IMG/VR virus record: IMGVR_UViG_3300023174_000078
Coordinates: 57,277 to 121,276 of that record
DNA: 64,000 bases
Direction: 5' to 3' (one strand)
Source: a virus
Program-made: the position numbers and the translations under genes
The notes under the pieces: model-generated
The model's input: only the letters and a program-made list of their open reading frames with translations
Databases searched by the model: none
What the model was told of the DNA's origin: nothing
Part shown: positions 3,949-57,466 of the stretch, piece after piece
How positions within the stretch are numbered: the stretch's first letter is position 1
Layout of the letters: every line of letters begins with the position of its first letter

Positions 3949-4677
3949 ATGGAAGCATATGATCCGTTATTAATGGGGAATTGGCATCATGATATTGTCA
4001 TTAATGCTGCTGTTAGAACGCGCGATTTATCGCCAGCATACAATGACAGATCTACAACCAGTAAAGAAGGCTTGGCTAAAGAAATAAAGGACATATACGG
4101 AGAAGCATTAAAAGATAAGAATGTATTGGATATTGCCTGTAATGCGGGCGGTCATTTGTATGCGTTAAACAGATTTGGTATTAATTCCGGGTTTGGCTTT
4201 GATGCGCGGTCCTTATGGATACAGCAAGCGCATTGGTTAAAAAGGAATATAGATATTCCGTGTGATAACCTGACATTCGTGGAAGGTAGCTTTGATGTAC
4301 TGCAAGACTTTGAAGACAGACATTTTCATTTGTCTTTGTTTAACGGGATATTCTATCACTTAGCCGATCCTATAACGCAGCTAGCTAAAGTAGCGGAAAA
4401 GACATCTGAGTTGCTTGTTATTAATACTGCTTATGCGCCTCAGCACTCTGCAGGTCCTCCTGCGTTAATATTCAAAATGGAGGATGCGTCTATTGAAACA
4501 GGTTTAAGTGGTCTGGATGGATTATCTTGGCTTCCTAGTGGTGAATATGTTCTTTACCGTATTCTTAAACATATGGGCTTTCCATATGCGCAGCTCATGT
4601 TCAAAAGTCCTAAGACCAATCGCCTAGCTGTTATTGCGGCACGCGAGGAAGGTTTACTAACTATTGCTGATGTATGA
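3949..4677 (+). CDS. Class I SAM-dependent methyltransferase
   Basis: VLDIACNAG motif I; GIFYHL.DP. Confidence 0.8.
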   Translation: MEAYDPLLMGNWHHDIVINAAVRTRDLSPAYNDRSTTSKEGLAKEIKDIYGEALKDKNVLDIACNAGGHLYALNRFGINSGFGFDARSLWIQQAHWLKRNIDIPCDNLTFVEGSFDVLQDFEDRHFHLSLFNGIFYHLADPITQLAKVAEKTSELLVINTAYAPQHSAGPPALIFKMEDASIETGLSGLDGLSWLPSGEYVLYRILKHMGFPYAQLMFKSPKTNRLAVIAAREEGLLTIADV

Positions 4678-5180
4678 CCCCGCCAGTGCTATGGTTGTAT
4701 GGTTTATCTGGGAGCGGTAAAACGACTGTTTCTCGCTATGCGCAGTATATCATTAACTCGTGGCACGCACCCGTGATTGTATTAGATGCAGATGTATTGA
4801 GAAAAGATTACTGGCCTGAGATAGGATTAACCAAGAGTGCCCGGCTAGAGAATACACGGCGTATCGCTAAATTAGCGAAGACTTATAAAGATCTGAATAT
4901 TGCTGTATTGGTAGCTGCGTGTGCGCCGTTCCAGGAACAAAGAGAGGATGTACTTCGTTTATTACCTGACACTAAGTTTGTTTACATGGACACACCATTA
5001 GACATATGCCGGGAGCGTAAACCTTACACATATAAAGATCCGGCGAGATCAGTTACTTCGGTAGAGCACACACCACCCCCTTGGGCAACTATAGACGGTA
5101 AACAAGATATCGACTCGATTCTTACCGCGACTTCAGTCATCTTAGAGCGATGGCTTCCCTTTCAAATTTCAAGTACCTAG
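4674..5180 (+). CDS. cysC: Adenylyl-sulfate (APS) kinase
   Basis: GLSGSGKTT P-loop, LDAD.LR, R.EN.RR, DTPLDICRER. Confidence 0.8.
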   Translation: MTPPVLWLYGLSGSGKTTVSRYAQYIINSWHAPVIVLDADVLRKDYWPEIGLTKSARLENTRRIAKLAKTYKDLNIAVLVAACAPFQEQREDVLRLLPDTKFVYMDTPLDICRERKPYTYKDPARSVTSVEHTPPPWATIDGKQDIDSILTATSVILERWLPFQISST

Positions 5181-5202: not shown

Positions 5203-5445
5203 ATGAACTCACTGGTTAACTCTGTACCAGCTTTTAATGGTTGCTTTACGCATCAGATAAAAAGATTTGTATCCTACGGCGTGTTTACGCCTGTAATTCT
5301 AGCTTCATCCGCTGCTGTAACTGGCGATGTTTTAGGAGAGCTGTATAGCAAACTGTTTCAGCTCAGCCCTTTTTTCTCTGAATCACAATTGCAACTGAGA
5401 CATGTTATTAAAACCAAACTGTATGACGACACTGAATACGGGTGA
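5203..5445 (+). CDS. Small protein, probable diverged tetrapeptide-repeat family member
   Basis: Weak 4-residue periodicity (FVSY GVFT PVIL); first gene of the mini-gene cluster. Confidence 0.45.
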   Translation: MNSLVNSVPAFNGCFTHQIKRFVSYGVFTPVILASSAAVTGDVLGELYSKLFQLSPFFSESQLQLRHVIKTKLYDDTEYG

Positions 5446-5665
5446 ACGTCGCGAATTTGCTGCGTATCACCTACTGTACAAGCGGTCTGTATTTAATACA
5501 CAAGACGACGTGATTGACCTGTTTGATATTTTATCAAACTTCACGGATTGCGTGCATGGTGATGTATGGGATGTGATTTTAGTTAATCTACGAACGCCAA
5601 TATATCAAGCGGCAGGTAGCCATATAGCAAATTATGCGTCCGCAATCCTGAATGAGACAATATGA
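5402..5665 (+). CDS. Small protein, diverged tetrapeptide-repeat family (start probably at MTTLN)
   Basis: SVFN...CVHG DVWD VILV; ends LNETI like the array units. Confidence 0.6.
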   Translation: MLLKPNCMTTLNTGERREFAAYHLLYKRSVFNTQDDVIDLFDILSNFTDCVHGDVWDVILVNLRTPIYQAAGSHIANYASAILNETI

Positions 5666-5874
5666 GAAGAAAAAAAGATTACTTAGGTGATTATGTCGCT
5701 GATAGTGTAAACGATATATGTTGGAGTTGTGTGATACACATTATCACGGATATCATTTTTATGGCGACATCTCGTCCTGTTTACAAGGAAATTTATGGAT
5801 TTATAGATACACATGTTTCTGATTCTGTAGGCAATATAGTTCATATAAAAATAAATAATGAATGCGATTTATAA
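5662..5874 (+). CDS. Small protein, diverged tetrapeptide-repeat family
   Basis: YVAD SVND ICWS CVIH...HVSD SVGN IVHI KINNE. Confidence 0.65.
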   Translation: MRRKKDYLGDYVADSVNDICWSCVIHIITDIIFMATSRPVYKEIYGFIDTHVSDSVGNIVHIKINNECDL

Positions 5875-5904
5875 ATCTGTTAACGCTACGTATAGCCGAA
5901 AAAC

Positions 5905-6108
5905 ATGAAAACACTTTCTGATACTGTCTGGTCTCAAACTTGGTATTGTATTCACATTTCTATATGGACCTCGATAGGCCGCGCGACTAATGCTGATACG
6001 GCGGTTTCTACGCACGAATTTGTTTCGGACGCAATTTTTGAACCTGTAGCTAAAGCTACTGGCACGCGTTACGTCGATTCAACAATATATGAAATTGTTA
6101 AATCCTAA
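5905..6108 (+). CDS. Small protein, diverged tetrapeptide-repeat family
   Basis: MKTLSD TVWS QTWY CIHI SIWT SIGR...FVSD AIFE PVAK. Confidence 0.7.
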   Translation: MKTLSDTVWSQTWYCIHISIWTSIGRATNADTAVSTHEFVSDAIFEPVAKATGTRYVDSTIYEIVKS

Positions 6109-6130
6109 AAAACAAATGAGTACACACTAA

Positions 6131-6364
6131 ATGATGAATGATAAAACTCTTTATAACTCTATAACGACGCTAGTGTCTGTTTTTGCGCTCGATGGTTTAG
6201 AAGATCATGTTTTTAGCGTTACTCGCGGCTCCTGCGCAGCTAGGTCTGTGTGGATAACTGTTATGCATCAAGTCTTTGACATTACGCACAGGGCTACAGC
6301 CGATCCTAATTATGGTATTACCTCACGTCTTGCCAAAGTATTAAATAAAAAAATAAATGAGTAA
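6131..6364 (+). CDS. Small protein, diverged tetrapeptide-repeat family
   Basis: LYN SITT...SVWI TVMH QVFD; ends NKKINE with an aataaatgagtaa junction. Confidence 0.65.
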   Translation: MMNDKTLYNSITTLVSVFALDGLEDHVFSVTRGSCAARSVWITVMHQVFDITHRATADPNYGITSRLAKVLNKKINE

Positions 6365-6563
6365 TATTTACTACTCTATTTGGACATCTATTTGCGATAA
6401 TGTCTGTGGTGGCGTGGAGCGCAATGGGCTTGACACTTTATGGGATACAGCGCGCTATTCCGTAGAGGATACTGTTTGGTTTGCTATCAGCGCCAATATC
6501 TTCGGGATTATGCCCGACGCTGTAGAAAAAACTATTTGTAACCATCTTTATGCTAAAACTTGA
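6357..6563 (+). CDS. Small protein, diverged tetrapeptide-repeat family
   Basis: SIWT SICD NVCG GVER...TARY SVED TVWF AISA. Confidence 0.7.
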   Translation: MSNIYYSIWTSICDNVCGGVERNGLDTLWDTARYSVEDTVWFAISANIFGIMPDAVEKTICNHLYAKT

Positions 6564-6978
6564 AAAATCCGTTTCACACTTCGCGCGTATTATGGTTCAG
6601 CCCAATATAATTGACCCCGTTAAACATAATGCGTGGCAGGCTATTAGTGAGCAAGATTGGGAAGACGTATGGCTAATTCCTGCCGAATCGATATATACCG
6701 CCGCACGTAATAACGTGAGTGAGCTGGTCAGGAGTTTTTTGTTACACACACACACAAACCTTATTAAAATGAGTACCGATAATGAATTAAGACGGGCTGT
6801 TAACGAGATTAGCGACGCGCTAGTTTGGAAAAATTTAAGGAGCGCAATATGGTCTCATATGGAAGCTGATAGATGGTGGAGTACCCGTTTTGCGCTGAGT
6901 GACAGCATGACGGCTAAAAATGTATGTACCGCTAACTTCTTCGTTAATTCTTACATGAATCAACAAAAATATGGATAA
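6550..6978 (+). CDS. Double-length tetrapeptide-repeat family protein (two units fused; second ATG at 6769)
   Basis: SVSH..PVKH NAWQ AISE..DVWL, then MSTDNELRR AVNE..LVWK..AIWS. Confidence 0.6.
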   Translation: MLKLEKSVSHFARIMVQPNIIDPVKHNAWQAISEQDWEDVWLIPAESIYTAARNNVSELVRSFLLHTHTNLIKMSTDNELRRAVNEISDALVWKNLRSAIWSHMEADRWWSTRFALSDSMTAKNVCTANFFVNSYMNQQKYG

Positions 6979-7183
6979 TGTTTTATACAGAACTATTTTT
7001 CACAATGTGTGGCGTCCTGTACACCGCTGTGTGTTGTACCGTATACAAGATAGCACAGCAAACGCTTTAATAGGCGATGTGTTTGAATCTGGATGGGTTG
7101 CTATCAGAGATGCTGCTTACATACCTGTGGAGGATATGCTTCATCCGTACGTTTCTTTAAAATTTAATTCAATATGCGTGTAG
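6971..7183 (+). CDS. Small protein, diverged tetrapeptide-repeat family
   Basis: TIFH NVWR PVHR CVLY RIQD...AIRD AAYI PVED. Confidence 0.65.
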   Translation: MDNVLYRTIFHNVWRPVHRCVLYRIQDSTANALIGDVFESGWVAIRDAAYIPVEDMLHPYVSLKFNSICV

Positions 7184-7296
7184 ACAATTCACCACACCCG
7201 GCAGTCATTCGCTGTATTGACGATAAACATAACGCTTCAAATTAGACACCGCCATCGCGGTCGTTTCCCTGCGGTGAAATCCAAATTCTGCACAAC

Positions 7297-7500
7297 ATGA
7301 CAATTCACGATTCTAGCGATACCCAGGTATACTACGCGATCAATAAGTACATCTGGTTCGATATCCGGGCTGCTATAAAGGATTTTATTTGTTACGACGC
7401 GTATCGCTACGTTGAGAACGAAATTTATGATAAAGCAGACAGTGTTACATACTATTCTGTATGCGAATATGTGGAGCTGAGCCTCAAAATTTATAAATGA
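7297..7500 (+). CDS. Small protein, diverged tetrapeptide-repeat family
   Basis: QVYY AINK YIWF DIRA AIKD FICY...SVCE YVEL. Confidence 0.65.
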   Translation: MTIHDSSDTQVYYAINKYIWFDIRAAIKDFICYDAYRYVENEIYDKADSVTYYSVCEYVELSLKIYK

Positions 7501-7706
7501 ATAACCCGACACTTTTTGTTTCAGTCTATAACCCTCCCGGATTAATTCCCCTAGTTGGGCAGTTGCACTTAAGGTGTGCGATGAACTATAGAGACGAAGT
7601 ATGGACGGCTATGTCGAATAACGCCGCCCATATTAGCAAGCGTTTAGGCCATGCGTCTTATCATACTGATCGCAAGATAGCTGAGGATTTACACCAGTAC
7701 ACATAG
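7497..7706 (+). CDS. Small protein, possible diverged family member
   Basis: LFV SVYN...EVWT AMSN; similar size and overlapping start. Confidence 0.5.
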   Translation: MNNPTLFVSVYNPPGLIPLVGQLHLRCAMNYRDEVWTAMSNNAAHISKRLGHASYHTDRKIAEDLHQYT

Positions 7707-7736
7707 CTTATGAATTTATGATACAATACTGAAACT

Positions 7737-8087
7737 ATGAGCACAAATAAAGAAATCAAAGTCACACCAAGAGTCTGGAAAGCTATGCGCTACGCTGGAG
7801 ATGGCTATGACACATACGGTAAACAAAGAGATGGTAAAAATTATTGCGATCTCGAGACCGCAGTGACTCTAGAGACTGAATTACAGGCAGCTACAAAGGA
7901 ATTAAAACTTCTGCAAAAGCAGAACGATAAACTACTAAAAGCGCTGCGGGCCTTTACGCGATTCGGCAGCAGTCCCGGAGCAGGTGGCGGCGGAACTTTA
8001 GATTTATACACGCAAGGACAACGTGTAACCGAAAAGAATGTTCGTGACATAGCAAGGAAAGCACTAAAAGCATATGGCCCTAAATGA
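7737..8087 (+). CDS. Hypothetical coiled-coil protein
   Basis: 116-aa ORF with a heptad-like segment. Confidence 0.6.
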   Translation: MSTNKEIKVTPRVWKAMRYAGDGYDTYGKQRDGKNYCDLETAVTLETELQAATKELKLLQKQNDKLLKALRAFTRFGSSPGAGGGGTLDLYTQGQRVTEKNVRDIARKALKAYGPK

Positions 8088-8331
8088 AGAATTCATAAAG
8101 GTAGAAACAGCATATCACACACCTCCTGGAGGTCAGCAGGTTGGTCCAGTTTCCGCAGGGGTTAAAGTGACACATGAGTTCGGTGGTATATCTGTGACAT
8201 GCGATTTAGGTAGGTCACAGAAACAGAATAAAGATATGGCTTTAGGAGCTATTGAATACTTATTAGTAGAAGCAGGATACACAGACGCCGTGTTATTTAA
8301 AAAAGATGAACATAATTCAAAAAGCAGCTGA
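8074..8331 (+). CDS. Stand-alone peptide chain release factor (GGQ) domain protein
   Basis: PGGQQV..VSAGVKVTH..GISVTC..GRSQKQNKDMAL matches the class I RF catalytic domain consensus. Confidence 0.8.
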   Translation: MALNEEFIKVETAYHTPPGGQQVGPVSAGVKVTHEFGGISVTCDLGRSQKQNKDMALGAIEYLLVEAGYTDAVLFKKDEHNSKSS

Positions 8332-12081: not shown

Positions 12082-12464
12082 ATATCATTTTTTTAGATGA
12101 TGACTTAAATCGTTGGAAGAGTTTTCGTTCCAAGGTGCCGCAGGCTGTACATGTAGAGACAGCTGCGGCGTGCATTAAACTTATCAAAGACACACCTGTC
12201 ATTGATTGGTTATTTCTAGATCATGATTTAGGCGGTGAAGCTTATGTGAAATCTTATCGCGAAGATTGTGGTATGGAAGTTGTGCGTTATTTGTGTGCGG
12301 AAAATCGCAACCAAACTATACATAATATTGTTGTACATTCGCATAACGCCCCAGCCGCGCAGGAGATGTTTAATAAGTTACAAGATGCTGGCTATAAAAC
12401 GCAGCTATTGCCGTTTTATAGTTTAGTTGACGCAATATCTGTAAATCTTGATGCTACGACTTGA
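12078..12464 (+). CDS. Divergent receiver-like domain protein (cyclic-phosphate-processing REC type)
   Basis: IFLDDD..R, LDHDLG, VHSHN motifs. Confidence 0.7.
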   Translation: MNIIFLDDDLNRWKSFRSKVPQAVHVETAAACIKLIKDTPVIDWLFLDHDLGGEAYVKSYREDCGMEVVRYLCAENRNQTIHNIVVHSHNAPAAQEMFNKLQDAGYKTQLLPFYSLVDAISVNLDATT

Positions 12465-13126
12465 GCATGTTTGGGTCACCTTCATGTTACATCAAAAGTG
12501 CTAAACTTACTGCCTATCTATTAAATAAATTTAATATTACTAAAAGTGAAAACAATCAAGATATAGTTCTTCTGTCTTTATTCGCTAGCGTAAAATCCTT
12601 CAAACTTAACATGTTCTCTCGTTCCTTTACGGCCAAAGAAGTCGCCACAATGATCCTGAATGAAAATGATCCAAAAACAATGGATTATTTTTTTATGAAA
12701 TTACTAGATGTTCAATTAGAGAACACGCAGATTAATTATAGTGGTACTTTGACTGGTACTGTACGAAGTGCAAAGTCTAGAATTACTGAAGCTTTTGGTG
12801 TATTGAGTCGCATACGTAACTTTGCCCGTGGGCAAATCTATTTTGTTATGGATATTCATGAGCATCAGATTTTTCCAAAGTCTAGATCTTTCAGAATTTG
12901 CAGTCGCAGACTAATGCCAAGTAAGGTAATTAATCCTAATGCAGGGCAGAAGAAACAAATTACTTATGGTTCTGGTTATGTCTCGACTTACCTGGAGCCT
13001 AATGAGATTTTGATGTCGAAGCATCTCGTGCTTTACTGTCGAAATGCTTGGGAGCGTAAAGGAGAAGTTAAACCTTCGCGGGCAAACCAGGCTAAGCCTG
13101 TGGTAAATGTTGACGCAACAGCATAG
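12461..13126 (+). CDS. Hypothetical protein
   Basis: 221-aa ORF. Confidence 0.6.
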   Translation: MSMFGSPSCYIKSAKLTAYLLNKFNITKSENNQDIVLLSLFASVKSFKLNMFSRSFTAKEVATMILNENDPKTMDYFFMKLLDVQLENTQINYSGTLTGTVRSAKSRITEAFGVLSRIRNFARGQIYFVMDIHEHQIFPKSRSFRICSRRLMPSKVINPNAGQKKQITYGSGYVSTYLEPNEILMSKHLVLYCRNAWERKGEVKPSRANQAKPVVNVDATA

Positions 13127-13150
13127 GTACTTAGTGTTATATAATCATGT

Positions 13151-13417
13151 ATGGGTAAGTATATCAATCATACTCAAAATGGGCCGCTTCAGCAGAAACA
13201 CAAAGCGGCAGAATTGAATAAGGCAGGTGCAGAACTTCTGTTAGACACGCCTACAACGTGGGAAGAAGGACTGATCTGCGTGGTGAGTAATGGTATATTC
13301 GAAGCGGCGGCGTATGTCCAGGATGCCCGGGATCTCGAAGATTTCTCTGAGTTCGTGTGGGACACCAGGCCGCGTGTATGGCTCAAATGGGATAGGGCTA
13401 AAGAGTTCGCTAAATGA
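13151..13417 (+). CDS. Hypothetical phage protein
   Basis: MGKYIN, VVSNG.FEAAAY, DTRPR.W motifs. Confidence 0.65.
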   Translation: MGKYINHTQNGPLQQKHKAAELNKAGAELLLDTPTTWEEGLICVVSNGIFEAAAYVQDARDLEDFSEFVWDTRPRVWLKWDRAKEFAK

Positions 13418-13989
13418 ACATCTTCGCAATTTACAGATGCCCGGTCACGTCGGCCCGGCATCTTGTAGATTCCCATGTCGTGAAAATGGTATTGGAATCT
13501 GCGCAGATGCTAGCTAATTGCTTTACGCCAGAACAACTTGCTGGTGCTGACTGTCCCAGAACGAAGGCAGGCACAGTACGCAAATATTCATATTACAATC
13601 ATCCATGTAGTAAATGGGTGCGCGTGTCGCAAGAGAATATGCGCTGGTTATGTCGACATGCGCTGGCTATGGACGTTGAAAGAATTCAACGCTCAACAAT
13701 CAGAATACAAGAACAACGACAATTAAGAGACCGTGGCTTACCGTATAGTGAAGCGATAGCGAACAGCACACCTGTTCCGCATCACAGCATTTCTTTTATT
13801 AATTGGGTAGTCGCTAATTTTCCGCGCAGTCTAATACCTGAAGGACCTTTGACAGAATTTGCACAGGCTATGCCAGATGAATTCAAATGTGCAGATTCTG
13901 TTCAAGCCTACCGCAACCTTTATACGATAGGTAAAAAACATTTACATATATGGACGCGCAACAAACCTGACTGGATTAACCTATGCTAG
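13414..13989 (+). CDS. Pyrimidine-dimer DNA glycosylase / endonuclease V-like protein
   Basis: MNIF...D.HVVKMVLESAQML...NHPC..W...QAMPD...AYR. Confidence 0.8.
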   Translation: MNIFAIYRCPVTSARHLVDSHVVKMVLESAQMLANCFTPEQLAGADCPRTKAGTVRKYSYYNHPCSKWVRVSQENMRWLCRHALAMDVERIQRSTIRIQEQRQLRDRGLPYSEAIANSTPVPHHSISFINWVVANFPRSLIPEGPLTEFAQAMPDEFKCADSVQAYRNLYTIGKKHLHIWTRNKPDWINLC

Positions 13990-14028
13990 ACCTTAATGAT
14001 AGTTCACCCCTACTGCCCCGGCGTTTAA

Positions 14029-14241
14029 ATGAAACGATCACTTAATAATTCTGTCTGGCATTCTGTCCGTAATTCTGTCAATGAGTCTGTCCGTAATTCT
14101 GTCAGAAATTCTGCCCTGTATTCTGTCTGGGATTCTGTCTATAATTCTGTCTGGGATTCTGTCCGTAATTCTGTCAGTGGTTCTGTCTATAATTCTGTGT
14201 GGCATTCTGTCAGTAATAAAATAAATGAAACGATCACTTAA
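14029..14241 (+). CDS. SVxx-repeat mini-protein 1 (14 repeats)
   Basis: MKRSLNN-(SVxx)14-KINETIT. Confidence 0.75.
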   Translation: MKRSLNNSVWHSVRNSVNESVRNSVRNSALYSVWDSVYNSVWDSVRNSVSGSVYNSVWHSVSNKINETIT

Positions 14242-14389
14242 TAATTCTGTCTGGCATTCTGTCCGTGATTCTGTCAGTGATTCTGTCTATAATTCTGTCT
14301 GGGATTCTGTCCGTAATTCTGTCAGTGGTTCTGTCTATAATTCTGTGTGGCATTCTGTCAGTAATAAAATAAATGAAACGATCACTTAA
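14225..14389 (+). CDS. SVxx-repeat mini-protein 2 (10 repeats, 54 aa; absent from the ORF track)
   Basis: Manual translation MKRSLNNSVWHSVRDSVSDSVYNSVWDSVRNSVSGSVYNSVWHSVSNKINETIT. Confidence 0.75.
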   Translation: MKRSLNNSVWHSVRDSVSDSVYNSVWDSVRNSVSGSVYNSVWHSVSNKINETIT

Positions 14390-14561
14390 TAATTCTGTCT
14401 GGCATTCTGTCCGTGATTCTGTCAGTGATTCTGTCTGGGATTCTGTCTATAATTCTGTCTGGAATTCTGTCAGTGGTTCTGTCAGGGATTCTGTCTATAA
14501 TCCTGTCAATGAGTCTGTCAGAGATTCTGTCAGTAATAAAATAAATGAAACAAGCACTTAA
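14373..14561 (+). CDS. SVxx-repeat mini-protein 3 (12 repeats)
   Basis: Same architecture, 17-nt overlap with neighbours. Confidence 0.75.
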   Translation: MKRSLNNSVWHSVRDSVSDSVWDSVYNSVWNSVSGSVRDSVYNPVNESVRDSVSNKINETST

Positions 14562-14733
14562 TAATTCTGTCCATAGTTTTGTCAGTGATTCTGTCTTTAG
14601 TTCTGTCCGTAATTCTGTCAGAGATTTTGTCAGTAATTCTGTCCGGTATTCTGTCAGTGATTCTGTCTGGGATTCTGTCTTTAATTCTGTCAATAATTCT
14701 GTCAGTAATAAAATAAATGAAACGATCACTTAG
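14545..14733 (+). CDS. SVxx-repeat mini-protein 4 (12 repeats)
   Basis: Same architecture. Confidence 0.75.
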   Translation: MKQALNNSVHSFVSDSVFSSVRNSVRDFVSNSVRYSVSDSVWDSVFNSVNNSVSNKINETIT

Positions 14734-14905
14734 TAGTTCTGTCCGTAGTTTTGTCAGTAATTCTGTCAGTAATTCTGTCAGTGGTTCTGTCTGGGATTCT
14801 GTCTGGCATTCTGTCCGGTATTCTGTCAGTGATTCTGTCTGGGATTCTGTCTTTAATTCTGTCAATGAGTCTGTCCGTAATAAAATAAATGAAACAATCA
14901 CTTAA
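14717..14905 (+). CDS. SVxx-repeat mini-protein 5 (12 repeats)
   Basis: Same architecture. Confidence 0.75.
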   Translation: MKRSLSSSVRSFVSNSVSNSVSGSVWDSVWHSVRYSVSDSVWDSVFNSVNESVRNKINETIT

Positions 14906-15089
14906 TAATTCTGTCAGTGGTTCTGTCTGGGATTCTGTCAGTAATTCTGTCAGTAATTCTGTCAATAATTCTGTCAGTGATTCTGTCAGTGGTTCTGTCT
15001 GGGATTCTGTCGGTGATTCTATCTGGGATTCTGTCTATGATTCTGTCCGTAATTCTGTCAGTAATAAAATAAATGAAACAATTACTTAA
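14889..15089 (+). CDS. SVxx-repeat mini-protein 6 (13 repeats)
   Basis: Same architecture. Confidence 0.75.
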   Translation: MKQSLNNSVSGSVWDSVSNSVSNSVNNSVSDSVSGSVWDSVGDSIWDSVYDSVRNSVSNKINETIT

Positions 15090-15309
15090 TAATTCTGTCG
15101 ATGATTCTGTCTGGGATTCTGTCAGTAATTCTGTCGACGATTCTGTCTGGGATTCTGTCTGGGATTCTGTCTTTAGTTCTGTCTGGAATTCTGTCTGGGA
15201 TTCTGTCCGTAATTCTGTCAGTGGTTCTGTCTATAATTCTGTGTGGCATTCTGTCCGTGATTCTGTCAGTAATTCTGTCCGTAATAAAATAAATGAAACA
15301 ATCACTTAA
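15073..15309 (+). CDS. SVxx-repeat mini-protein 7 (16 repeats)
   Basis: Same architecture. Confidence 0.75.
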   Translation: MKQLLNNSVDDSVWDSVSNSVDDSVWDSVWDSVFSSVWNSVWDSVRNSVSGSVYNSVWHSVRDSVSNSVRNKINETIT

Positions 15310-15541
15310 TAATTCTGTCAGCAATTCTGTCTGGAATTCTGTCCGTAATTCTGTCAGTGGTTCTGTCTATAATTCTATCAGTGATTCTGTCCGGTATCCT
15401 GTCAGTAATTCTATCAGTGATTCTGTCCGGTATCCTGTCAGTAATTCTGTCAATGATTCTGTCTGGTATTCTGTCTGGGATTCTGTCCGTAGTTTTGTCA
15501 GTAGTTTTGTCAGTAATAAAATAAATGAAACAATCATTTAG
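15293..15541 (+). CDS. SVxx-repeat mini-protein 8 (17 repeats)
   Basis: Same architecture; internal 36-bp duplication (SISD SVRY PVSN x2). Confidence 0.75.
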   Translation: MKQSLNNSVSNSVWNSVRNSVSGSVYNSISDSVRYPVSNSISDSVRYPVSNSVNDSVWYSVWDSVRSFVSSFVSNKINETII

Positions 15542-15773
15542 TGATTCTGTCTGGGATTCTGTCAATAATTCCGTCCGTGATTCTGTCCGTAATTCTGTCC
15601 GTGGTTCTGCATATAATTATGTCGGTGATTCTGTCTGGCATTCTGTCTGGCATTCTGTCCGTGATTCTGTCCGTAGTTTTGTCTGGGATTCTGTCGGTGG
15701 TTTTGTCTGGGATCCTGTCAGTGATTCTGTCAATGAGTCTGTCCGTAATAAAATAAATGAAACAATCACTTAA
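15525..15773 (+). CDS. SVxx-repeat mini-protein 9 (17 repeats)
   Basis: Same architecture. Confidence 0.75.
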   Translation: MKQSFSDSVWDSVNNSVRDSVRNSVRGSAYNYVGDSVWHSVWHSVRDSVRSFVWDSVGGFVWDPVSDSVNESVRNKINETIT

Positions 15774-16017
15774 TAATTCTGTCAGTGGTTCTGTCTGGGA
15801 TTCTGTCAGTAATTCTGTCAGTAATTCTGTCAATAATTCTGTCAGTGATTCTGTCAGTGGTTCTGTCTGGGATTCTGTCTGTAATTCTGTCTGGGATTCT
15901 GTCTGGAATTTTGTCTATAATTCTGTCTGGAATTCTGTCAGTGGTTCTGTCAGGGATTCTGTCTGGCATTCTGTCTGGGCTTCTGTCAGTAATAAAATAA
16001 ATGAAACAATCACTTAA
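15757..16017 (+). CDS. SVxx-repeat mini-protein 10 (18 repeats)
   Basis: Same architecture. Confidence 0.75.
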   Translation: MKQSLNNSVSGSVWDSVSNSVSNSVNNSVSDSVSGSVWDSVCNSVWDSVWNFVYNSVWNSVSGSVRDSVWHSVWASVSNKINETIT

Positions 16018-16150
16018 TAATTCTGTCCATAGTTTTGTCAGAGATTCTGTCAGAGATTCTGTCTGGGATTCTGTCTGTCATTCTGTCTATAATTCTGTCC
16101 GTAATAAAATAAATGAAACTACACGATTACAAATTAGAACCTCAAAATGA
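16001..16150 (+). CDS. SVxx-repeat mini-protein 11 (7 repeats, 49 aa; absent from the ORF track)
   Basis: Manual translation MKQSLNNSVHSFVRDSVRDSVWDSVCHSVYNSVRNKINETTRLQIRTSK. Confidence 0.7.
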   Translation: MKQSLNNSVHSFVRDSVRDSVWDSVCHSVYNSVRNKINETTRLQIRTSK

Positions 16151-16541
16151 AACATTAGCTGTACTACGTAAACATGGTTTCAATTTGTCGCGCATGATTG
16201 CCTACAGCAAATCTACATACTTATCAATGCATCCGGAGCATCAAGTAGTGTTCAATGCCAATATTTTTACTCCGCAAGGTAAAGCTTGGTGGGGTGACTT
16301 GGATCTAACGAAAGATTCAGAAAATCTACAGCTTGCAGCTGCCGATATCGGTTCCACTTTATACGTGCTACGTGAATCGGATGGTCGCTTTGGCAATGAG
16401 CAGCGTACTGTGTCAGAATTAGAAAAATTAGCCGTCAAGAAATTTGAAGTTAAGTCAAAACAAAAAAAATCAATTCAAACATGTCTACAATCTTTAGCAT
16501 CCAAGGTAACACAATTTTTCTCCGCGACCCGGAGGCGATGA
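16113..16541 (+). CDS. Hypothetical phage protein, coupled to the array
   Basis: ATG sits in the same AATAAAATAAATGAAAC junction; SKSTY, FNANI, WWGDLDL, YVLRESDGRF motifs. Confidence 0.75.
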   Translation: MKLHDYKLEPQNETLAVLRKHGFNLSRMIAYSKSTYLSMHPEHQVVFNANIFTPQGKAWWGDLDLTKDSENLQLAAADIGSTLYVLRESDGRFGNEQRTVSELEKLAVKKFEVKSKQKKSIQTCLQSLASKVTQFFSATRRR

Positions 16542-17581
16542 ATTTCCACGATAAGCTTCCACCGGAAGTTTACGCGATTAAAGAGCACCCTATCACTGAG
16601 GAGTTGTTTTTAGATAAGATTGATTGTTTTAATATACCGCACAAGAGATACGGTAATAATGACAGGTACGCCCAACGTATCTTGAACAGCTTCAAGCTAC
16701 GCAATCAAGCGACCGGTGTTCTCTTGTGTGGGGAGAAGGGGTCCGGTAAGTCGCTACTTGCCAAAACTCTAGCCAATATCGCGCAAGCAGAGGGGTTGCC
16801 AGTTATCGTGGTTAACACACCACGCACTGGTGACGCTTTCTTCCAGCTTATTCAGCGGATTGAGCAGCCCGCTATTATTCTCTTTGATGAGTTCGAGAAG
16901 GTGTACGACTCAGACAAACAGAAAGAAGTTCTGACGCTGCTTGACGGCATCTATCCGTCCAATAAATTGTATGTCTTCACGGTCAACGATAAGTGGAAGC
17001 TGGATGTGAACATGCGCAACCGCCCCGGACGTATTTTCTATTCCATTGACTACAAAGGCATCGAAGAAAAGTTTATTCGTGAGTACTGCGAAGACAATTT
17101 GAATGATAAGTCGCAGGTCGACCATATCGTTCGTATCAACACACTGTTCAGTGCGTTTAATTTTGATATGCTGCAGGCTTTGGTTGAGGAAATGAATCGT
17201 TATAATGAAGATCCATTTGAGGCGATTCAGTTGCTGAATATCAAACCCGAGTACGAAGATGCCACAACCTTCACTACGTTTATTTCCGTCGATGGTACGC
17301 CTGATTCGCATATCACATGTGACCGGGACTTTAATGGTAAGCCTTTGGGCGACCGTGTGAAAATCTATTACCATAAGTATAGGCGTCTGGATATTTCCAA
17401 GGAACACTGTGATAACGAAGCCGACTGGCTGTCCGCTGAGTTTGTTCCAACGGATTTGGTTTCCGTCAGTAAGGACGGTAAAACTTTCTTGTTTAAGAAT
17501 AGCAAAGGCGAATCTGTTACGCTGCAAGCTAAAAAGAGTGATACCGCATTCGATTACCGCACTTTCGCTTACGCGAGCTAG
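16481..17581 (+). CDS. AAA+ ATPase
   Basis: Walker A GEKGSGKS, Walker B ILFDEFEK, LLDG, RPGR arginine finger. Confidence 0.9.
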   Translation: MSTIFSIQGNTIFLRDPEAMNFHDKLPPEVYAIKEHPITEELFLDKIDCFNIPHKRYGNNDRYAQRILNSFKLRNQATGVLLCGEKGSGKSLLAKTLANIAQAEGLPVIVVNTPRTGDAFFQLIQRIEQPAIILFDEFEKVYDSDKQKEVLTLLDGIYPSNKLYVFTVNDKWKLDVNMRNRPGRIFYSIDYKGIEEKFIREYCEDNLNDKSQVDHIVRINTLFSAFNFDMLQALVEEMNRYNEDPFEAIQLLNIKPEYEDATTFTTFISVDGTPDSHITCDRDFNGKPLGDRVKIYYHKYRRLDISKEHCDNEADWLSAEFVPTDLVSVSKDGKTFLFKNSKGESVTLQAKKSDTAFDYRTFAYAS

Positions 17582-17628
17582 TGTGCATTAAAAACAAATC
17601 AAACAAATTAAACAAAAGTCATACAATC

Positions 17629-18666
17629 ATGGACGCGAAACAGCAAAAAGAAAAGATCTCCGAACTCACTCCTGAGCAAAAGGCTAAGATGCCAGAATAT
17701 GTTAAGAAGTGGATTGCTATCGGCAACGACACTTCCCGGTTGAATTATGATCGTACTGTCGACATCATTCATGCGGTTCAGAAGCACATCCTGAAGAAAG
17801 AACCTACTCCGGTTTTGATCTTTGATAACCCCATGGAGGCCTGGGTAGCGTGTAACTATGCCGCACACGGTCACAAGGTTAATGAACTCAAGAACTGTGT
17901 GGAGGAGTTCTTCAGTGGAAAGAAACCCAAGTGGAAACTTGGTCAGTATGTTTCACCCTATCTCAATGGGTCATTCGCAGCACCAACGTTCGCCTTCTAC
18001 GACTTTTTCAAGTTCGAGTTGGGCGTTTCGTTTGACACTACCGGTACGCCAGTCGCAGCTGCGCAAGACAACAGCGCGCTTAGCGTGGATGAACTGTATG
18101 AGATCTGGAAGAGCACCACAGAGCTTGGACTGATCTATCCAATTCACGACGTCCAAGGTGCAGCACAGGATATGTGTATCGTGTCTCAAAAACCATCGCG
18201 GGTAAAAGTTAATGAAGCCGGTGTCGTACACTGCGATGGCGCTGTTGCCATTGAGTACGAGGGGCATGGCGATATCAAGATTTATGCGCTCAATGGTGTG
18301 ACTGTTCCTGATTGGTTGGCTTTGACGCCAGCCCAGAACATCCCCGTCGAGCGGATACACGAAATTAAAAATGCAGACATTAAAGCCGAGTTTGTTCGCA
18401 AGATCGGTGTTGAGCGTTTGCTTGACATGGGAAGCAAAGTGGACTCTTATGAGGCTCATTCTGATGAGTGGTGGCACAAGTCGCAATACGAGCTTTGGGA
18501 TATGCACAACCTGTTTCCTAATGTTGAGTACGCCCCACACCTCAAGATGCTGAATCAGACGACCAAAATCTGGCACGTTGAGGCTGTATCTCCTAGTTGC
18601 AGAACAATCGAAGATGCGTTGAAAGACCGGTATGGTCGCAATGTTGACATCATTGAAATCGCCTAA
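17629..18666 (+). CDS. DUF6745-like protein (ATG at 17629 preferred over GTG at 17581)
   Basis: LTPEQ...Y..KW..IG N-terminus; FYDFF; G.VHCDGAVAIEY...YALNGVTVP; I.NAD..AE..RKIG. Confidence 0.7.
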   Translation: MDAKQQKEKISELTPEQKAKMPEYVKKWIAIGNDTSRLNYDRTVDIIHAVQKHILKKEPTPVLIFDNPMEAWVACNYAAHGHKVNELKNCVEEFFSGKKPKWKLGQYVSPYLNGSFAAPTFAFYDFFKFELGVSFDTTGTPVAAAQDNSALSVDELYEIWKSTTELGLIYPIHDVQGAAQDMCIVSQKPSRVKVNEAGVVHCDGAVAIEYEGHGDIKIYALNGVTVPDWLALTPAQNIPVERIHEIKNADIKAEFVRKIGVERLLDMGSKVDSYEAHSDEWWHKSQYELWDMHNLFPNVEYAPHLKMLNQTTKIWHVEAVSPSCRTIEDALKDRYGRNVDIIEIA

Positions 18667-18676
18667 ATAAATTACG

Positions 18677-18700
18677 GGGCAATAAATAAACCTATTGCCC
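18677..18700 (+). promoter_or_regulatory. Intergenic hairpin
   Basis: GGGCAATA-N8-TATTGCCC. Confidence 0.35.
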
Positions 18701-22406: not shown

Positions 22407-24161
22407 ATGAGCTATAAAATATCCCTCTTACATGCGACGCGTGGTCGCGCCCTGCAAGCTAAAGAATGTCGTGATGCGTGGATGAGCGCCGCAAAGCATC
22501 CTGAAGACATTGAGCATATCTTTGGTATAGACGATGATGACATCGACAGTCTAACCAACATTAATACGCAAAGAGTTATTGCGGAACGCGGTAAGGGCTG
22601 CGTCGCAGCTTGGAACGCTTGCGCGAAAGCCAGTAAGGGTGATATCCTAATTCAGTTGTCGGATGACTGGGAACCCACAAAGAATTGGGATGTGGATATT
22701 CTGCGCGAATTTGAGGATGCTAAGGGGGAGCGTGTGCTAGCCATATCGGACGGGCATCGTACTGATGACCTGCTGTGTATGGCAATACTGAATAGGGCGC
22801 GGTACGAAAAGCAGGGATACCTGTTTCACCCTGAATTCTTCAGTGTTTACAGCGATAATTATTTTACTTGGGCGGCTACCAAGGACGGTGTCATAAAAGA
22901 TTCTAGACATATTGTTTTCGAGCACAAACATCCTGTGTTCAACAAGGCAGAATGGGATCCTACATATTTAGCAAGTAACGCGCAGCAAAATTATGTGCAG
23001 GGGCATGGTAAATTCTTGGAACTTACACGCCCGGCAGGATCTAAGATTTGCTTGGCGATGATTGTAAAGAATGAAATGCATAACATGCGTAAGTGTTTGG
23101 AGTCTGTTAAAGACGTCATTAATTACTGGGTAATTTGCGATACAGGATCTACAGATGGTACACAGCAATTCATTAAAGATCTGATGACCGAATGGAATAT
23201 TCCGGGGGAGCTTCATGAGAGACCCTGGGTAGACTTCGCAACGAACAGAACAGAATCTTTGCAGCTCGCCCGCGATAAGGGCGATTACACACTGGTAATG
23301 GACGCTGATGATTATCTGGAAGTACAGGGGGACATAAGTGCACTGCGTAATTTAAAGTTTGATCAGTATCACCTCAAGATCACGCATGGTGCGCTTGCGT
23401 ACAGCCGCGTGCAGCTAGTACGTAACGAATATGAATGGAAGTATGTAGGTGTGCTGCATGAGTATCTAGACGGTCCTAAAGACATTAAGCTGTTTCCTGC
23501 TGTTGTTCTTAACAATGTTATTATTCGTGCGTCGGCATCTGATACCAGGAACGGATTTTCAGGGTCTAAAAAGTATATTAGTGATGCTTTAATTTTAGAG
23601 AAAGCATTACTCGATGACTCCATTGACCCCGGTCTCCGCTCACGTTATTTCTTTTACTTAGCGCAAAGTTACAGAGACGCGGGCGCGCATGAGCGTGCTA
23701 TTGTAGCGTATAAGCAGCGCGTAGATCTGGGTGGTTGGGATGAAGAGGTATACTACTCTAATTACATGATTGCGCGTCTTAAGGTTTTAATGAATTATAA
23801 GGAGGAAGAAATCATCAACTCTTTCTTGAAGGCCTGGGAAAGCCGACCTGGTCGCGTAGACGCTTTATTTGACCTGATAATTTATTTAAGAGGACAAGAG
23901 CGATTCGCGCTTGCGTGGGCGCTTGTTTCCATAGGTGTTAAAATTCCGCCGACCAACGACAATTTATTCGTGCGATTTGAGATTCAACAATGGAGAATGT
24001 TAGATGAGTATTCTATTTTAGCCGCGCGTACAGGAAATAAGGAAGAGGCAATTCGTGCCGCTAAAACCTTGCTAGAAAGTCCGTTGTCTGCCAAGCTAAT
24101 TCCAGAGAATGAAAGAGAAAGAATAGATAAGAACTTAATAGAGTTTAACAAACTACCATGA
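22407..24161 (+). CDS. Fused double GT2 glycosyltransferase with TPR tail
   Basis: Domain 1 HATRGR..QLSDDW..YSDN; domain 2 MIVKNE..DTGSTDGT..DADD..GVLHE; TPR YLAQSYRD. Confidence 0.85.
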   Translation: MSYKISLLHATRGRALQAKECRDAWMSAAKHPEDIEHIFGIDDDDIDSLTNINTQRVIAERGKGCVAAWNACAKASKGDILIQLSDDWEPTKNWDVDILREFEDAKGERVLAISDGHRTDDLLCMAILNRARYEKQGYLFHPEFFSVYSDNYFTWAATKDGVIKDSRHIVFEHKHPVFNKAEWDPTYLASNAQQNYVQGHGKFLELTRPAGSKICLAMIVKNEMHNMRKCLESVKDVINYWVICDTGSTDGTQQFIKDLMTEWNIPGELHERPWVDFATNRTESLQLARDKGDYTLVMDADDYLEVQGDISALRNLKFDQYHLKITHGALAYSRVQLVRNEYEWKYVGVLHEYLDGPKDIKLFPAVVLNNVIIRASASDTRNGFSGSKKYISDALILEKALLDDSIDPGLRSRYFFYLAQSYRDAGAHERAIVAYKQRVDLGGWDEEVYYSNYMIARLKVLMNYKEEEIINSFLKAWESRPGRVDALFDLIIYLRGQERFALAWALVSIGVKIPPTNDNLFVRFEIQQWRMLDEYSILAARTGNKEEAIRAAKTLLESPLSAKLIPENERERIDKNLIEFNKLP

Positions 24162-28847: not shown

Positions 28848-29060
28848 ATGAACAGACCCGTCCCATCTAATAACGCCGAATTGAGAAAGGCGGTTGATGT
28901 CGCTAATAATATCTTTGAGAATATAGCGTCTATGCCTGAAACCTTTGAAATGTATCCTTTTTTACTAGCGAGCTACAATAGTCTGTGTAAAGGATGTACA
29001 GATCCTCGCGCCTTTAATTATGACCCAAATGCGGAAGTAGACGATAATTCTTGTTTATGA
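28848..29060 (+). CDS. Small protein with a GCTD..A.NY...A..DD.SC motif
   Basis: ATG at 28848; C-terminal GCTDPRAFNYDPNAEVDDNSC. Confidence 0.6.
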   Translation: MNRPVPSNNAELRKAVDVANNIFENIASMPETFEMYPFLLASYNSLCKGCTDPRAFNYDPNAEVDDNSCL

Positions 29061-31254: not shown

Positions 31255-32010
31255 ATGCGCATAATTCATACCCATAACGGGTTAAGACTTGGGGATAACT
31301 TAATACAACTGAATTTTCTCAGACGAGCAAGTCAGATAAATAAGGATGTGCAGTTCATTCATTACTACAATCCGCATTTTTGTAATGGTGCGGAGCTTCT
31401 ACCTTTTGTTGAGGGCTTTGAAACGCAGATTACAATTTCGCCAGCTTCCCCGCCAGCGCACAGTATAGATTCTTGGCGCGGACCTATGTGGTATTCGCAC
31501 GCGGATAGATTAGACTTTGCGAAGTTTCATTTATTCTGGTTCGCTCATTTGGCGGCAGTAATGCAGATTGTAAATCCAATTAATGACACAGAGCATTTAC
31601 TTATCGACTACCCGTTACTGTACAATAATGACGTACCGTCTTTTGACGCAGTAATCATTAATTCCCCTGCGCTGTCAGGACAGTATCATGCTTATAACGA
31701 GGACGACTACAGGCATCTTATTATTGCGTTGCTCGCTCGCGGTTACTCTGTGCTGACTACAAAGCCTACAGATTTATGTCCTTCTGCGGTAGGGCATAAC
31801 GTGGCCTGGATTGGCGCTGTAGCGGCAAATGCCAAATTGATTATAGGTACTAGCACCGGACCTAGCTGGCCTTGTTTGAATGTGAGAAATAGAGATGCTA
31901 AACACATTTTATGTCTAGATACTGAAAATGTTATCTTGACACCACGAGGTAGCGTGGCTAGGAATGTGCCGCAAGTTATCGATATTTTGGCTAAAGAAAA
32001 TTTTTTATGA
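31255..32010 (+). CDS. Glycosyltransferase-like protein (GT-B / GT9-like)
   Basis: RLGDNL N-terminal motif; IGTSTGPSW. Confidence 0.55.
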   Translation: MRIIHTHNGLRLGDNLIQLNFLRRASQINKDVQFIHYYNPHFCNGAELLPFVEGFETQITISPASPPAHSIDSWRGPMWYSHADRLDFAKFHLFWFAHLAAVMQIVNPINDTEHLLIDYPLLYNNDVPSFDAVIINSPALSGQYHAYNEDDYRHLIIALLARGYSVLTTKPTDLCPSAVGHNVAWIGAVAANAKLIIGTSTGPSWPCLNVRNRDAKHILCLDTENVILTPRGSVARNVPQVIDILAKENFL

Positions 32011-57096: not shown

Positions 57097-57466
57097 TCCT
57101 TCTCCTGTAAAAAGAAAACAAGTTTTAGCGGGTTCGGCAGCAGCGCAGCCGTGGCGCGTACTTCTTCAAGTGCGCCCGAGTCTACTTGCGACTGACTTAG
57201 TTCCCGTAATTTATTATGTTAGAGGGCGCGTGGATGAGGTAGGTAACATTGCTTACTTAATGTGGAAACGCTGGGAGAAAAACGATATTGGTTTAGGCGA
57301 CCAGCAATATCCTGATATTGAAGAAAACGGAGTCATTGAGTGTATTGATGAGGACGACTTCAAGAAAGCTTACGCGGCGGCAAAAAAGTATAAGTTACCG
57401 CACGCAGTTGCTGGCGACCCAAAAAATCCTACTGTGTTTACATGTTTTAAACGTACTAATTTATAA
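56942..57466 (+). CDS. Hypothetical protein (start probably at MSNPS, 57089)
   Basis: ORF. Confidence 0.55.
   Translation: MKTRKIVLRNFTSVLICLVETWSFDLRMRDAPAKNKRSGVKGHIKLIKTMSNPSPVKRKQVLAGSAAAQPWRVLLQVRPSLLATDLVPVIYYVRGRVDEVGNIAYLMWKRWEKNDIGLGDQQYPDIEENGVIECIDEDDFKKAYAAAKKYKLPHAVAGDPKNPTVFTCFKRTNL

Follow-up and report, generated by a model that had tools for sequence, protein, structure and literature searches.

The closest described counterparts of the locus considered here are translationally coupled overlapping gene pairs of bacteria and phages (Huber et al. 2019, PMC6728339), in which the downstream gene is reached by termination-reinitiation or through RNA unfolding. The section of a review that we drew on (PMC12548453) describes coupling by RNA unfolding or ribosome scanning, reports that coupling also occurs without a Shine–Dalgarno motif, and states that the overlap is shorter than 30 bp in over 80% of such pairs. 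Herein, we describe an array of 11 small, overlapping open reading frames (ORFs) at positions 14029 to 16150 on the plus strand of a 64,000-nucleotide stretch of viral DNA (IMG/VR record IMGVR_UViG_3300023174_000078, positions 57,277 to 121,276), called the window throughout. It makes up the 3′-terminal 64 kb of a virus contig of 121 kb, which is estimated to be 67% complete. We argue that the array is probably a tandem family of 11 small phage genes that has grown by duplication, whose members are translated separately and form a partner module for a protein related to the family DUF6745.

Results

A single junction, copied within a 12-nucleotide repeat, defines the array

The 11 ORFs lie head to tail between a denV-like gene and a gene for a 142-amino acid (aa) protein. 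They encode proteins of 49 to 86 aa that share one plan, wherein the head MK[RQ]SLNNSV is followed by 7 to 18 tetrads of the form x1-x2-Ser-Val (xxSV) and then by the tail [SR]NKINETIT. In order along the plus strand, the ORFs are unit 1 (14029–14241; 70 aa, 14 tetrads), unit 2 (14225–14389; 54 aa, 10 tetrads), units 3 (14373–14561), 4 (14545–14733), and 5 (14717–14905), each of 62 aa with 12 tetrads, unit 6 (14889–15089; 66 aa, 13 tetrads), unit 7 (15073–15309; 78 aa, 16 tetrads), unit 8 (15293–15541; 82 aa, 15 tetrads), unit 9 (15525–15773; 82 aa, 17 tetrads), unit 10 (15757–16017; 86 aa, 18 tetrads), which served as the query for searches and folding, and unit 11 (16001–16150; 49 aa, 7 tetrads). 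Unit 11 runs 38 nucleotides (nt) into the 142-aa gene, and because it reads into that gene it ends in NETTRLQIRTSK (a C-terminus also given as ...NKINETTRLQIRTSK) instead of ...NETIT. Tandem Repeats Finder detects approximately 159 copies of a repeat with a 12-nt period.

The periods, recomputed from the 11 ORF starts, are 196, 148, 172, 172, 172, 184, 220, 232, 232, 244, and 112 nt. Every one equals 28+12n, as stated in a first-pass annotation of this DNA. The frame index along the units rotates 0, 1, 2, and neighboring units overlap by 17 nt (ATG...TAA or TAG) at 10 unit-to-unit junctions. The annotated 17-nt overlap with a +1 shift at every junction is therefore real, as one feature copied 11 times. 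The sequence ATG AAA C.A TCA CTT AA that opens each unit is read in another frame as the terminal NETIT* of the preceding unit, and likewise for a 20-codon leader ORF (13983–14045, plus strand) upstream of unit 1. This leader ORF bridges the denV-like gene, whose stop (13987–13989) lies in a 7-nt overlap, and unit 1, with which it shares 17 nt; the 142-aa gene, in turn, has its ATG at 16113 within an array-type junction. Both flanking overlaps had been proposed earlier and are present as described. The 17-mer AATAAAATAAATGAAAC occurs in 11 exact copies within the array and nowhere else in the 121-kb contig, compared with a shuffle expectation of 0.07, and none of 100 shuffles reached 11 copies.

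Every unit measures 3m+1 nt and shifts the frame by +1 because a 28-nt junction (24+4) sits in a 12-nt repeat. Since this single junction sets the shift, the 11 periods are copies of one junction and not independent evidence of design. Each junction also places stops in all three plus-strand frames within approximately 20 nt of the ATG, with TAA directly 5′ of each unit ATG, TGA inside the ATGA, and a double stop after ACT in 11 of 11 cases.

Six of the 11 junctions (14515–15754) carry a CTGTCA or TTGTCA located 16 nt from a TAAAAT, which resembles a sigma-70 promoter. Junction promoters were considered and rejected: the region has 12 promoter-like sites versus 16.9 in shuffles, and the −10 element would set the transcription start inside an ORF.

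Arrays of the same kind recur in other large phages

We defined an (xxSV)n array as at least three ORFs of 130 aa or less that lie head to tail on one strand, each with at least four consecutive xx[ST][VIM] tetrads, and that use array-specific Ser-Val codons. The window holds 11 such units with 146 tetrads, and at least 13 other distinct arrays from uncultivated large phages show the same features (compared here are L127, L207–L210, L258, L314/L335, L325, L332, L334, L336, L351, and L355). Some were found by the unit 10 search (L207–L210) and some by a degenerate DNA pattern (L258, L314, and L325), and further arrays were found adjoining DUF6745 relatives (L332, L334–L337, L339, L351/L352, L355/L356, and L365). 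Four of the eight loci with at least three mini-ORFs that the DNA pattern returned (L211, L252, L259, and L308) were discarded as plain simple-sequence repeats. Across the arrays, units measure 27 to 112 aa, each having its xxSV tetrads framed by a brief head and tail, with up to 16 units per array. The head-to-tail arrangement on one strand and the homogenized codons are shared with the window, whereas heads, tails, and spacing differ.

The closest relative is L127, with identities of 78% for an ATPase, 79% for the DUF6745 homolog, 72% for the denV-like protein, 68% for the product of an 88-aa gene, and 63% for that of the 142-aa gene. Among 80 loci with relatives of the window ATPase, xxSV runs occur in L127 only, and the denV-like, 88-aa, 142-aa, and DUF6745 genes are common only to L127 and the window. 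The L127 array lies directly after the denV-like gene and overlaps its stop by ATGA; a repeat-less DUF6745 gene follows the ATPase gene. Its 11 units have the form MTLKDSV...S[IV]KDL[IV]KS[YH]DT, with a possible degenerate twelfth after them. The first 10 are linked head to tail by 11-nt overlaps (ATGACACTT[AG]A) with a frame shift of +1 each, and ten unit-to-unit periods of 172 to 232 nt are all 12n+4. When read by eye, the L127 junction can be aligned to that of the window save for a 6-nt indel. Approximately 1.7 kb of other genes separate the L127 array from the homolog of the gene at 16113.

Two L127 ORFs (4638–4928 and 5297–5602) are identical over a long stretch, ISRRQQMGIKKYNST...IEQIDKDNG, and the head MKKTQSQNKNMQSQNEEFHA is common to two ORFs; sequence between the array and the 16113 homolog thus seems to have been duplicated locally not long ago. 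The largest arrays are found in L336/L337 (7643–12881), where 16 units lie 3′ of a repeat-less DUF6745 gene and reach the end of the fetched locus, and in L351/L352 (1371–2180 and 7414–9104), where 4+8 units flank another repeat-less DUF6745 gene on both sides.

Spacing was tallied for 70 unit-to-unit intervals no longer than 150 nt, with duplicate arrays left out and with a crude start rule that takes the last Met before the first tetrad run. Overlaps of 17 nt were counted 11 times (10 in the window and one in L351), of 11 nt 20 times, of 8 nt once, and of 4 nt 11 times; the other spacings were 0 (once), +2 (10 times), +4 (three times), +6 (twice), +9 (four times), and +12 to +97 (seven times). 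The −17 spacing is thus confined to the window save for one L351 junction. Because spacings differ among arrays, the overlapping relay is a mark of one sub-lineage (the window, L127, L207, L210, and L351) and not of the family.

Other searches were negative within their scope. The exact 17-mer gave single chance matches in A-rich DNA and no second array among viral contigs. No match was found to GenBank phages by tblastn with unit 10, a weak blank with the low-complexity filter on, or by megablast with 12400 to 18700. No Pfam, PHROG, or NCBIfam family was found for the (xxSV)n units of any array, the Pfam scan covering units 1 and 10 of the window, and neither PADLOC nor NCBIfam gave a match to the units, to the product of the 16113 gene, or to the window DUF6745 homolog. 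Look-alikes retrieved by a protein language model are viral clusters of 51 to 74 members with lengths of 65 to 86 aa.

Comparison among arrays identifies a selected reading frame

That the xxSV frame has no stops says little about coding, since other frames are open as well. A second plus-strand frame (ILSV...) is also open, and two minus-strand frames are open for up to approximately two units, giving ORFs of 99 to 123 aa (DRI..., TEL...). Codon use in the window array is nearly uniform, with TCT in 133 of 134 Ser codons, GTC in 138 of 141 Val codons, GAT in all 50 Asp codons, and AAT in all 54 Asn codons. In 34 other genes of the window, by contrast, Val is encoded least often by GTC (14%). 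Of the 129 Ser-Val codon pairs tallied in the array, 125 are TCTGTC. Elsewhere, the pair is TCTGTT (L127, where GTT accounts for 132 of 138 Val codons), TCCGTT (L207), TCAGTG (L208), TCAGTT (L210 and L351), TCTGTA (five arrays), or TCTGTG (L332); TCC GTG is likewise used among the other arrays, and at least six codon pairs encode Ser-Val across the whole set. The alternative frames also vary by array, reading ILSV, ILFG, or IPFG on the plus strand and DRI or NRI on the minus strand.

Because Ser-Val is kept while codons and alternative frames change between arrays, we take the xxSV frame to be the selected frame. Judged by this comparison, the array ORFs are genuine genes. The homogenization of codons within an array, together with synonymous differences between arrays, indicates concerted evolution acting on a protein-level constraint. 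Within the 12-mer of the window, entropy is 1.0 to 1.65 bits at positions 1 to 4, which comprise codon x1 and the first base of x2, and 0.06 to 0.34 bits at positions 6 to 12. The residues at x1 are mostly W, S, R, N, or Y, and those at x2 are mostly N, D, G, or H.

The repeat also occurs inside DUF6745 proteins

With unit 10 as the query, 27 proteins of 47 to 151 aa and 739 longer proteins were found at E≤1e-3; among the matches listed, most of the 120 longer proteins carry PF20530 (DUF6745). Matches to DUF6745 proteins reach an E value of 1e-32 and cover the repeat insert only. In such proteins (e.g., P0044, P0031, and P0037), an xxSV run lies between N-terminal and C-terminal parts. The inserts resemble the units in having the same tetrad, with x1 mostly W, R, S, G, or Y and x2 mostly D or N. 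The window differs in that the units are separate 49- to 86-aa proteins without the domain (units 1 and 10 have no Pfam match) and the neighboring DUF6745 gene is repeat-less. A second context for the repeat is found in P0001, P0054, and P0094, wherein a DUF7666-type N-terminus is followed by repeats and a conserved C-terminal piece (...WKY..PFQ..DLW..GLVPSFDG..WRLH). Because it occurs in both contexts, the repeat is a module of at least two otherwise unrelated protein families. The literature searched holds no mention of DUF6745, DUF7666, PF20530, or PF24703, and the strings SVWDSV, DSVRDSV, DSVWDSV, and SVRDSV were not found in it.

The repeat-less DUF6745 homolog of the window (17629–18666, plus strand, with GTG at 17581 as a possible start) lies approximately 1.5 kb 3′ of the array and is the candidate partner of the mini-proteins. 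By BLASTP it matches P0044 at 32% over 234 aa (E 3e-29), plus an N-terminal segment (residues 10–59), and it has no xxSV run. Its score against Pfam DUF6745 is 19.3 bits (E 7.4e-4), which is below the cut-off of 27, whereas P0044 scores 88 bits. L127 has a likewise repeat-less homolog (7153–8190). In L207, a repeat-less DUF6745 gene (644–1612) whose product is 46% identical to that of the window overlaps unit 1 by ATGA, and five units follow directly.

Searching viral contigs with the single window DUF6745 protein gave no relatives. An alignment of the three repeat-less proteins (window, L127, and L207) led to 40 viral loci with relatives of 35 to 79% identity. None of the 40 genes has an xxSV run inside it. 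At least three mini-ORFs on one strand are present at 12 of the 40 loci, as they are at L365 under a looser start rule, and at all 40 loci every mini-ORF found is on the DUF6745 strand. In controls, no such array was seen at 79 ATPase-relative loci (833 kb) or at 118 unrelated viral loci (1.1 Mb), with Fisher p values of 6e-7 and 2e-8. After removal of near-duplicates and of the close relative of the window, the count is 9 of 36 versus 0 of 79 (p 1.3e-5). The four true arrays from the DNA pattern have no long repeat-bearing ORF in the same locus, and one of them, in L314, recurs in L335, which has a DUF6745 gene.

A module that is fused to a protein in some genomes and encoded adjacent to it in others is a classical hint of functional partnership. 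The pattern seen here suggests that the mini-proteins represent the repeat module of DUF6745 in a free-standing and diversified form.

Structure predictions favor a helix for the isolated unit

AlphaFold2 folded unit 10, with a 41-row alignment, as one helix spanning residues 2 to 85 (predicted local distance difference test [pLDDT] 82.6, predicted template modeling score [pTM] 0.37), and a homodimer prediction for the same unit scored 0.01. For P0044, modeled with a 61-row alignment, the N- and C-terminal parts mostly exceed a pLDDT of 90; the repeat (residues 74–180) is helical at a pLDDT of 30 to 50. No solved relative of the P0044 model was found, the best Foldseek hit in the PDB having an E value of 0.86 and the best VIA-align hit a Z of 4.4. 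The isoelectric points of the units range from 4.05 to 10.0.

Internal starts resemble independent starts, and the entry to the array does not

Among 64 window gene starts, only two have GGAG, GAGG, or AGGA at −20 to −4, and leaders are A/T-rich and G-poor, which hints that the host initiates without Shine–Dalgarno pairing. A position weight matrix (PWM) for the 20-nt leader was built from 63 gene starts, which were themselves scored by leave-one-out. Gene starts average 0.77 ± 2.45 bits and 1205 other ATGs average −2.50 ± 3.12 bits. With 1.18 to 2.83 bits, the ATGs of the 10 internal units and of the 16113 gene rank above 56 to 79% of the 63 gene starts and 87 to 95% of the 1205 ATGs. The leader of unit 1 is G/C-rich, and its score of −5.88 bits is lower than that of any of the 63 gene starts; for the 20-codon ORF, the ATG reaches 0.66 bits, approximately the median of gene starts.

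Five 81-nt junction segments fold no better than their shuffles (z from −0.19 to +0.48), and a 361-nt stretch gives a z of −1.03. There is no sign of a start that stays masked before a ribosome reaches it from the preceding ORF. An ATGA overlap joins unit 1 to its upstream gene in both L127 and L207, and neither locus has a leader ORF. With a poor unit 1 leader, an average leader-ORF ATG, and the ATGA overlap in these two relatives, coupling at array entry is plausible. The 20-codon ORF is possibly a coupling leader, and its peptide, which is not conserved, is probably not what matters.

Overlap is common in this genome. Outside the array, 25 of the 56 window gene pairs examined overlap, by 1, 4, 7, 8, 11, 14, 23, 37, 44, or 61 nt. 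The array region shows the co-directional overlap of coupled genes throughout, with 10 overlaps of 17 nt, the 38 nt shared with the 16113 gene, and the 7 nt shared by the denV-like gene and the leader ORF.

Strain data place variation at both flanks

No independent contig spans the array among the public-run Logan contigs examined, and thus the number and order of units rest on the original short-read assembly. None of the public runs listed as holding this DNA is an RNA data set. Contigs of runs X1 and X2, either of which may be the source sample of the window itself, break at 14055 and resume at 16012; the array has exact internal repeats of 150 to 199 nt. Local array pieces match at 99% or better in both runs, this being true of all 49 pieces in X1 and all 31 in X2.

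Strain X3 has approximately 194 extra bases after the denV-like gene and, just 5′ of 16104, a 112-nt loose end unlike the array, so that the 16113 gene is not joined to an array unit. Because X3 differs on both sides, both flank links vary among close strains. It also has an extra C after 14006 that changes the leader frame, in one contig at a depth of 3.7, which could be an error; this insertion would end the leader ORF at the TGA of the ATGA. Inside the array, all differences between X3 and the window fall in variable codons, but no conclusion is drawn from this, as short repeat contigs may sit on non-orthologous tetrads.

Gene context of the array

Nearly all ORFs of the window are on the plus strand, and it carries six tRNA genes at a GC content of approximately 41%. 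The upstream neighbor of the array, the denV-like gene (13414–13989, plus strand), encodes 191 aa with matches to Pfam Pyr_excise (E 6.4e-6) and phrog_624 (E 1e-38). Downstream, the 142-aa gene (16113–16541, plus strand) has a product that matches no Pfam, PHROG, NCBIfam, or PADLOC family, and a search of viral contigs for its relatives gave no match. The next gene (16481–17581, plus strand) encodes an AAA-type ATPase (Pfam AAA, E 1.1e-9; phrog_2376, E 3e-89) and shares 61 nt (16481–16541) with the 142-aa gene. The last 30 or so residues of the 142-aa protein come after an A-rich run near 16450 to 16470, and the L127 homolog stops earlier (...KKFVPA) without overlapping the ATPase gene. The long tail in the window may stem from an error in a homopolymer or from a difference in frame.

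At 6 to 16 kb 3′ of the array are genes of glycosyltransferase-like or radical-SAM-like type (22407–24161, 29051–30667, and 32007–33098), the first two being glycosyltransferase-like; modification of the tetrad Ser would be pure speculation. A second run of 11 small plus-strand ORFs (67–142 aa) occupies 5203 to 7706, with overlaps of 4, 8, 14, and 44 nt. Weak matches to the unit profile are found there at 5686 to 5862 (E 5e-5), 6366 to 6488 (E 1.5e-4), and 6986 to 7144 (E 6e-3), and these stretches may be old, diverged paralogs of the mini-genes.

Discussion

The explanation that we favor, and consider probable, is that of a duplicated family of separately translated genes serving a DUF6745 partner. 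One unit, comprising a 28-nt junction with its own A/T-rich start region and n copies of the 12-nt repeat, would have been copied and resized by unequal recombination or slippage. The +1 rotation and the 17-nt overlap would then be by-products of array growth and not a decoding device. Units are presumably made as separate polypeptides from a polycistronic plus-strand message, wherein each internal ATG would be able to initiate alone and termination-reinitiation may add to this, probably most for unit 1. As the gene neighborhood suggests, the mini-proteins may act with the downstream repeat-less DUF6745 protein as a diversified, exchangeable repeat module.

Several observations weigh against this interpretation. 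Low synonymous variation beside variable x1 and x2 could also mean that the constant 8 nt are constrained as DNA. The PWM separates gene starts only weakly from other ATGs (means of 0.77 versus −2.5 bits), and the unit count comes from one short-read assembly. The predicted helix of the repeat is not secure, given the pLDDT of 30 to 50 in the full-length DUF6745 protein, and by our reasoning a period of 4.0 residues is at odds with a canonical coiled coil. No array lies within 6 kb at 28 of the 40 DUF6745 loci, many loci being cut by contig ends, and no nearby DUF6745 gene was found in the short stretches of L208, L209, L210/L257, L258, L314, and L325. In addition, the co-occurrence of arrays and DUF6745 genes may come partly from shared phage ancestry, as the statistics ignore kinship.

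The first-pass annotation had offered two ways of decoding the array, and the two fare differently. One is an obligatory relay, in which ribosomes load once at the denV-like gene or the leader ORF and pass from ORF to ORF, so that peptides are near-equimolar and expression of the 16113 gene depends on the array. This geometry is compatible with termination-reinitiation. The overlap chain is unbroken from the denV-like gene to 16113, stops in three frames surround each ATG, the unit 1 leader scores below every reference start beside an average leader-ORF ATG, and unit 1 of L127 and L207 has its ATGA overlap with the upstream gene. Overlaps of −11 or −17 occur in five distinct arrays with unlike junction sequences (the window, L127, L207, L210, and L351), and coupling without Shine–Dalgarno motifs is reported in the part of PMC12548453 used here. 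However, the internal ATGs resemble good independent starts, no start-occluding structure is predicted, 27 of the 70 tallied family spacings are not overlaps, and the link to the 16113 homolog is missing in L127 and in strain X3. We therefore regard an obligatory relay as unlikely, while ordinary coupling stays plausible for unit 1; similarly, the proposed tie of the array to both flanking genes holds as an overlap chain in the window, but its 16113 end is not kept in L127 or X3. A more elaborate version, to which we assign a rather small probability, would make DUF6745 a split, combinatorial system. A repeat-less scaffold would be served in trans by 5 to 16 fast-evolving mini-proteins with x1 and x2 under diversifying selection (e.g., to recognize or evade a variable host or defense target), and the −17 and −11 overlaps would form a true relay fixing stoichiometry in a host that initiates without Shine–Dalgarno pairing.

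The other decoding proposal was +1 frameshifting into concatenated proteins. In +1 sites of the prfB/antizyme type (CUU-UGA-C in prfB), the P-site tRNA re-pairs in the +1 frame beside a slow A-site codon, and the T4 gene 60 bypass uses matched take-off and landing codons with a stop right after take-off and a stem-loop there. The array resembles both in having a zero-frame stop with a continuation in the +1 frame, and long (xxSV)n proteins would arise if ribosomes either shifted by +1 at the junctions in a programmed way or bypassed 28 nt between the two AAU codons. Indeed, deleting the 28-nt junction would give a seamless 12-nt repeat, the junction is flanked by matched AAT codons, and long unbroken xxSV runs are known in other proteins (approximately 290 aa in P0028). 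Against recoding, the zero frame reads AUC ACU UAA U or ACU UAG, and by our reasoning an ACU tRNA cannot re-pair on CUU, so that no slippery codon is available; no Shine–Dalgarno-like stimulator is present, in a genome without such motifs; and the double stop follows 11 of 11 junctions. For a bypass, the codon after take-off is AAA and not a stop, and no stem-loop exceeds shuffles. Moreover, units stand in different frame relations from one array to another (−4, +2, +4, +9, and others) and relatives keep separate units. Recoding is thus highly improbable, and nothing found here supports +1 frameshifting.

Two further alternatives question whether the units are genes at all. The region could be a noncoding DNA-level repeat, such as 160 sites ATTCTGTC that bind a protein every 12 nt or an element used in recombination or replication, or it could be an assembly artifact. 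The constant 8 nt with nearly no synonymous variation, the openness of all plus frames and of two minus frames for up to approximately two units, and the AT skew of −0.29 are all compatible with the former, and the lack of a contig across the array with the latter. Yet xxSV is kept with at least six codon pairs across arrays and in hundreds of proteins from other genomes, TAA-ATG and a stop recur in every unit, the independently assembled L127 has the same architecture, and local pieces were recovered at 99% or better in two runs. These findings make a noncoding or artifactual origin highly improbable. There is also scarcely any chance that a single long repeat gene, such as a DUF6745 insert, was split by 28-nt insertions and survives in the array as a decaying remnant. 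The junctions do resemble insertions in a continuous 12-nt repeat, and the neighboring DUF6745 gene has no repeats. Nevertheless, ATG, head, tail, and stop are all intact in each piece, at least 13 other distinct arrays, with as many as 16 units, show this unit structure with other heads and tails, and the protein-language-model look-alikes form viral clusters of similarly short proteins (51–74 members).

The array is apparently a phage mini-gene family new to the literature and family databases searched, and recurrent in large freshwater phages. The fused-versus-split pattern, in which the repeat lies inside DUF6745 or in separate genes beside a repeat-less DUF6745, would be a first functional handle on that family. 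The evolutionary signature is clear, with codons homogenized per array, synonymous differences between arrays, and two hypervariable residues per tetrad. The relay opens no new decoding mechanism, because it reduces to ordinary gene overlap copied by duplication; the array is nonetheless a convenient natural substrate for studying reinitiation at −17 and −11 overlaps without Shine–Dalgarno motifs.

Known systems with hypervariable or four-residue repeats offer partial parallels. Diversity-generating retroelements vary adenine-templated (AAY-type) codons and come with a template repeat and a nearby reverse transcriptase. We rejected the array as a target of such an element: its variable codons are mostly TGG, AGT, CGT, and TAT, which is not the adenine-mutagenesis pattern, although a reverse transcriptase was not sought specifically. 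The TLP-4 glycofibril, a linear tetrapeptide repeat with a coat of O-glycans as presented in the excerpt of PMC11725842 used here, shares with the units a four-residue repeat, a Ser in every repeat, and a freshwater setting, and the window has glycosyltransferase-like genes. The repeats described there are P[TS]xx or [TS]Pxx with dihydroxyproline, whereas proline occurs in only 4 of the 146 xxSV tetrads. Identity with TLP-4 was rejected, as the repeat type differs and the units have almost no proline.

The nearest parallel remains that of coupled overlapping gene pairs. As in the pairs described at the outset, the ORFs are co-directional, the downstream ATG lies near the upstream stop, and a 17-nt overlap is within the usual range. 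They differ in that −4 and −1 are the commonest overlaps among the described pairs, whereas the window repeats −17 ten times through unit duplication. With internal ATGs that have the usual leader of this genome and no occluding RNA structure predicted, ordinary and probably optional translational coupling is the best reading of the overlaps.

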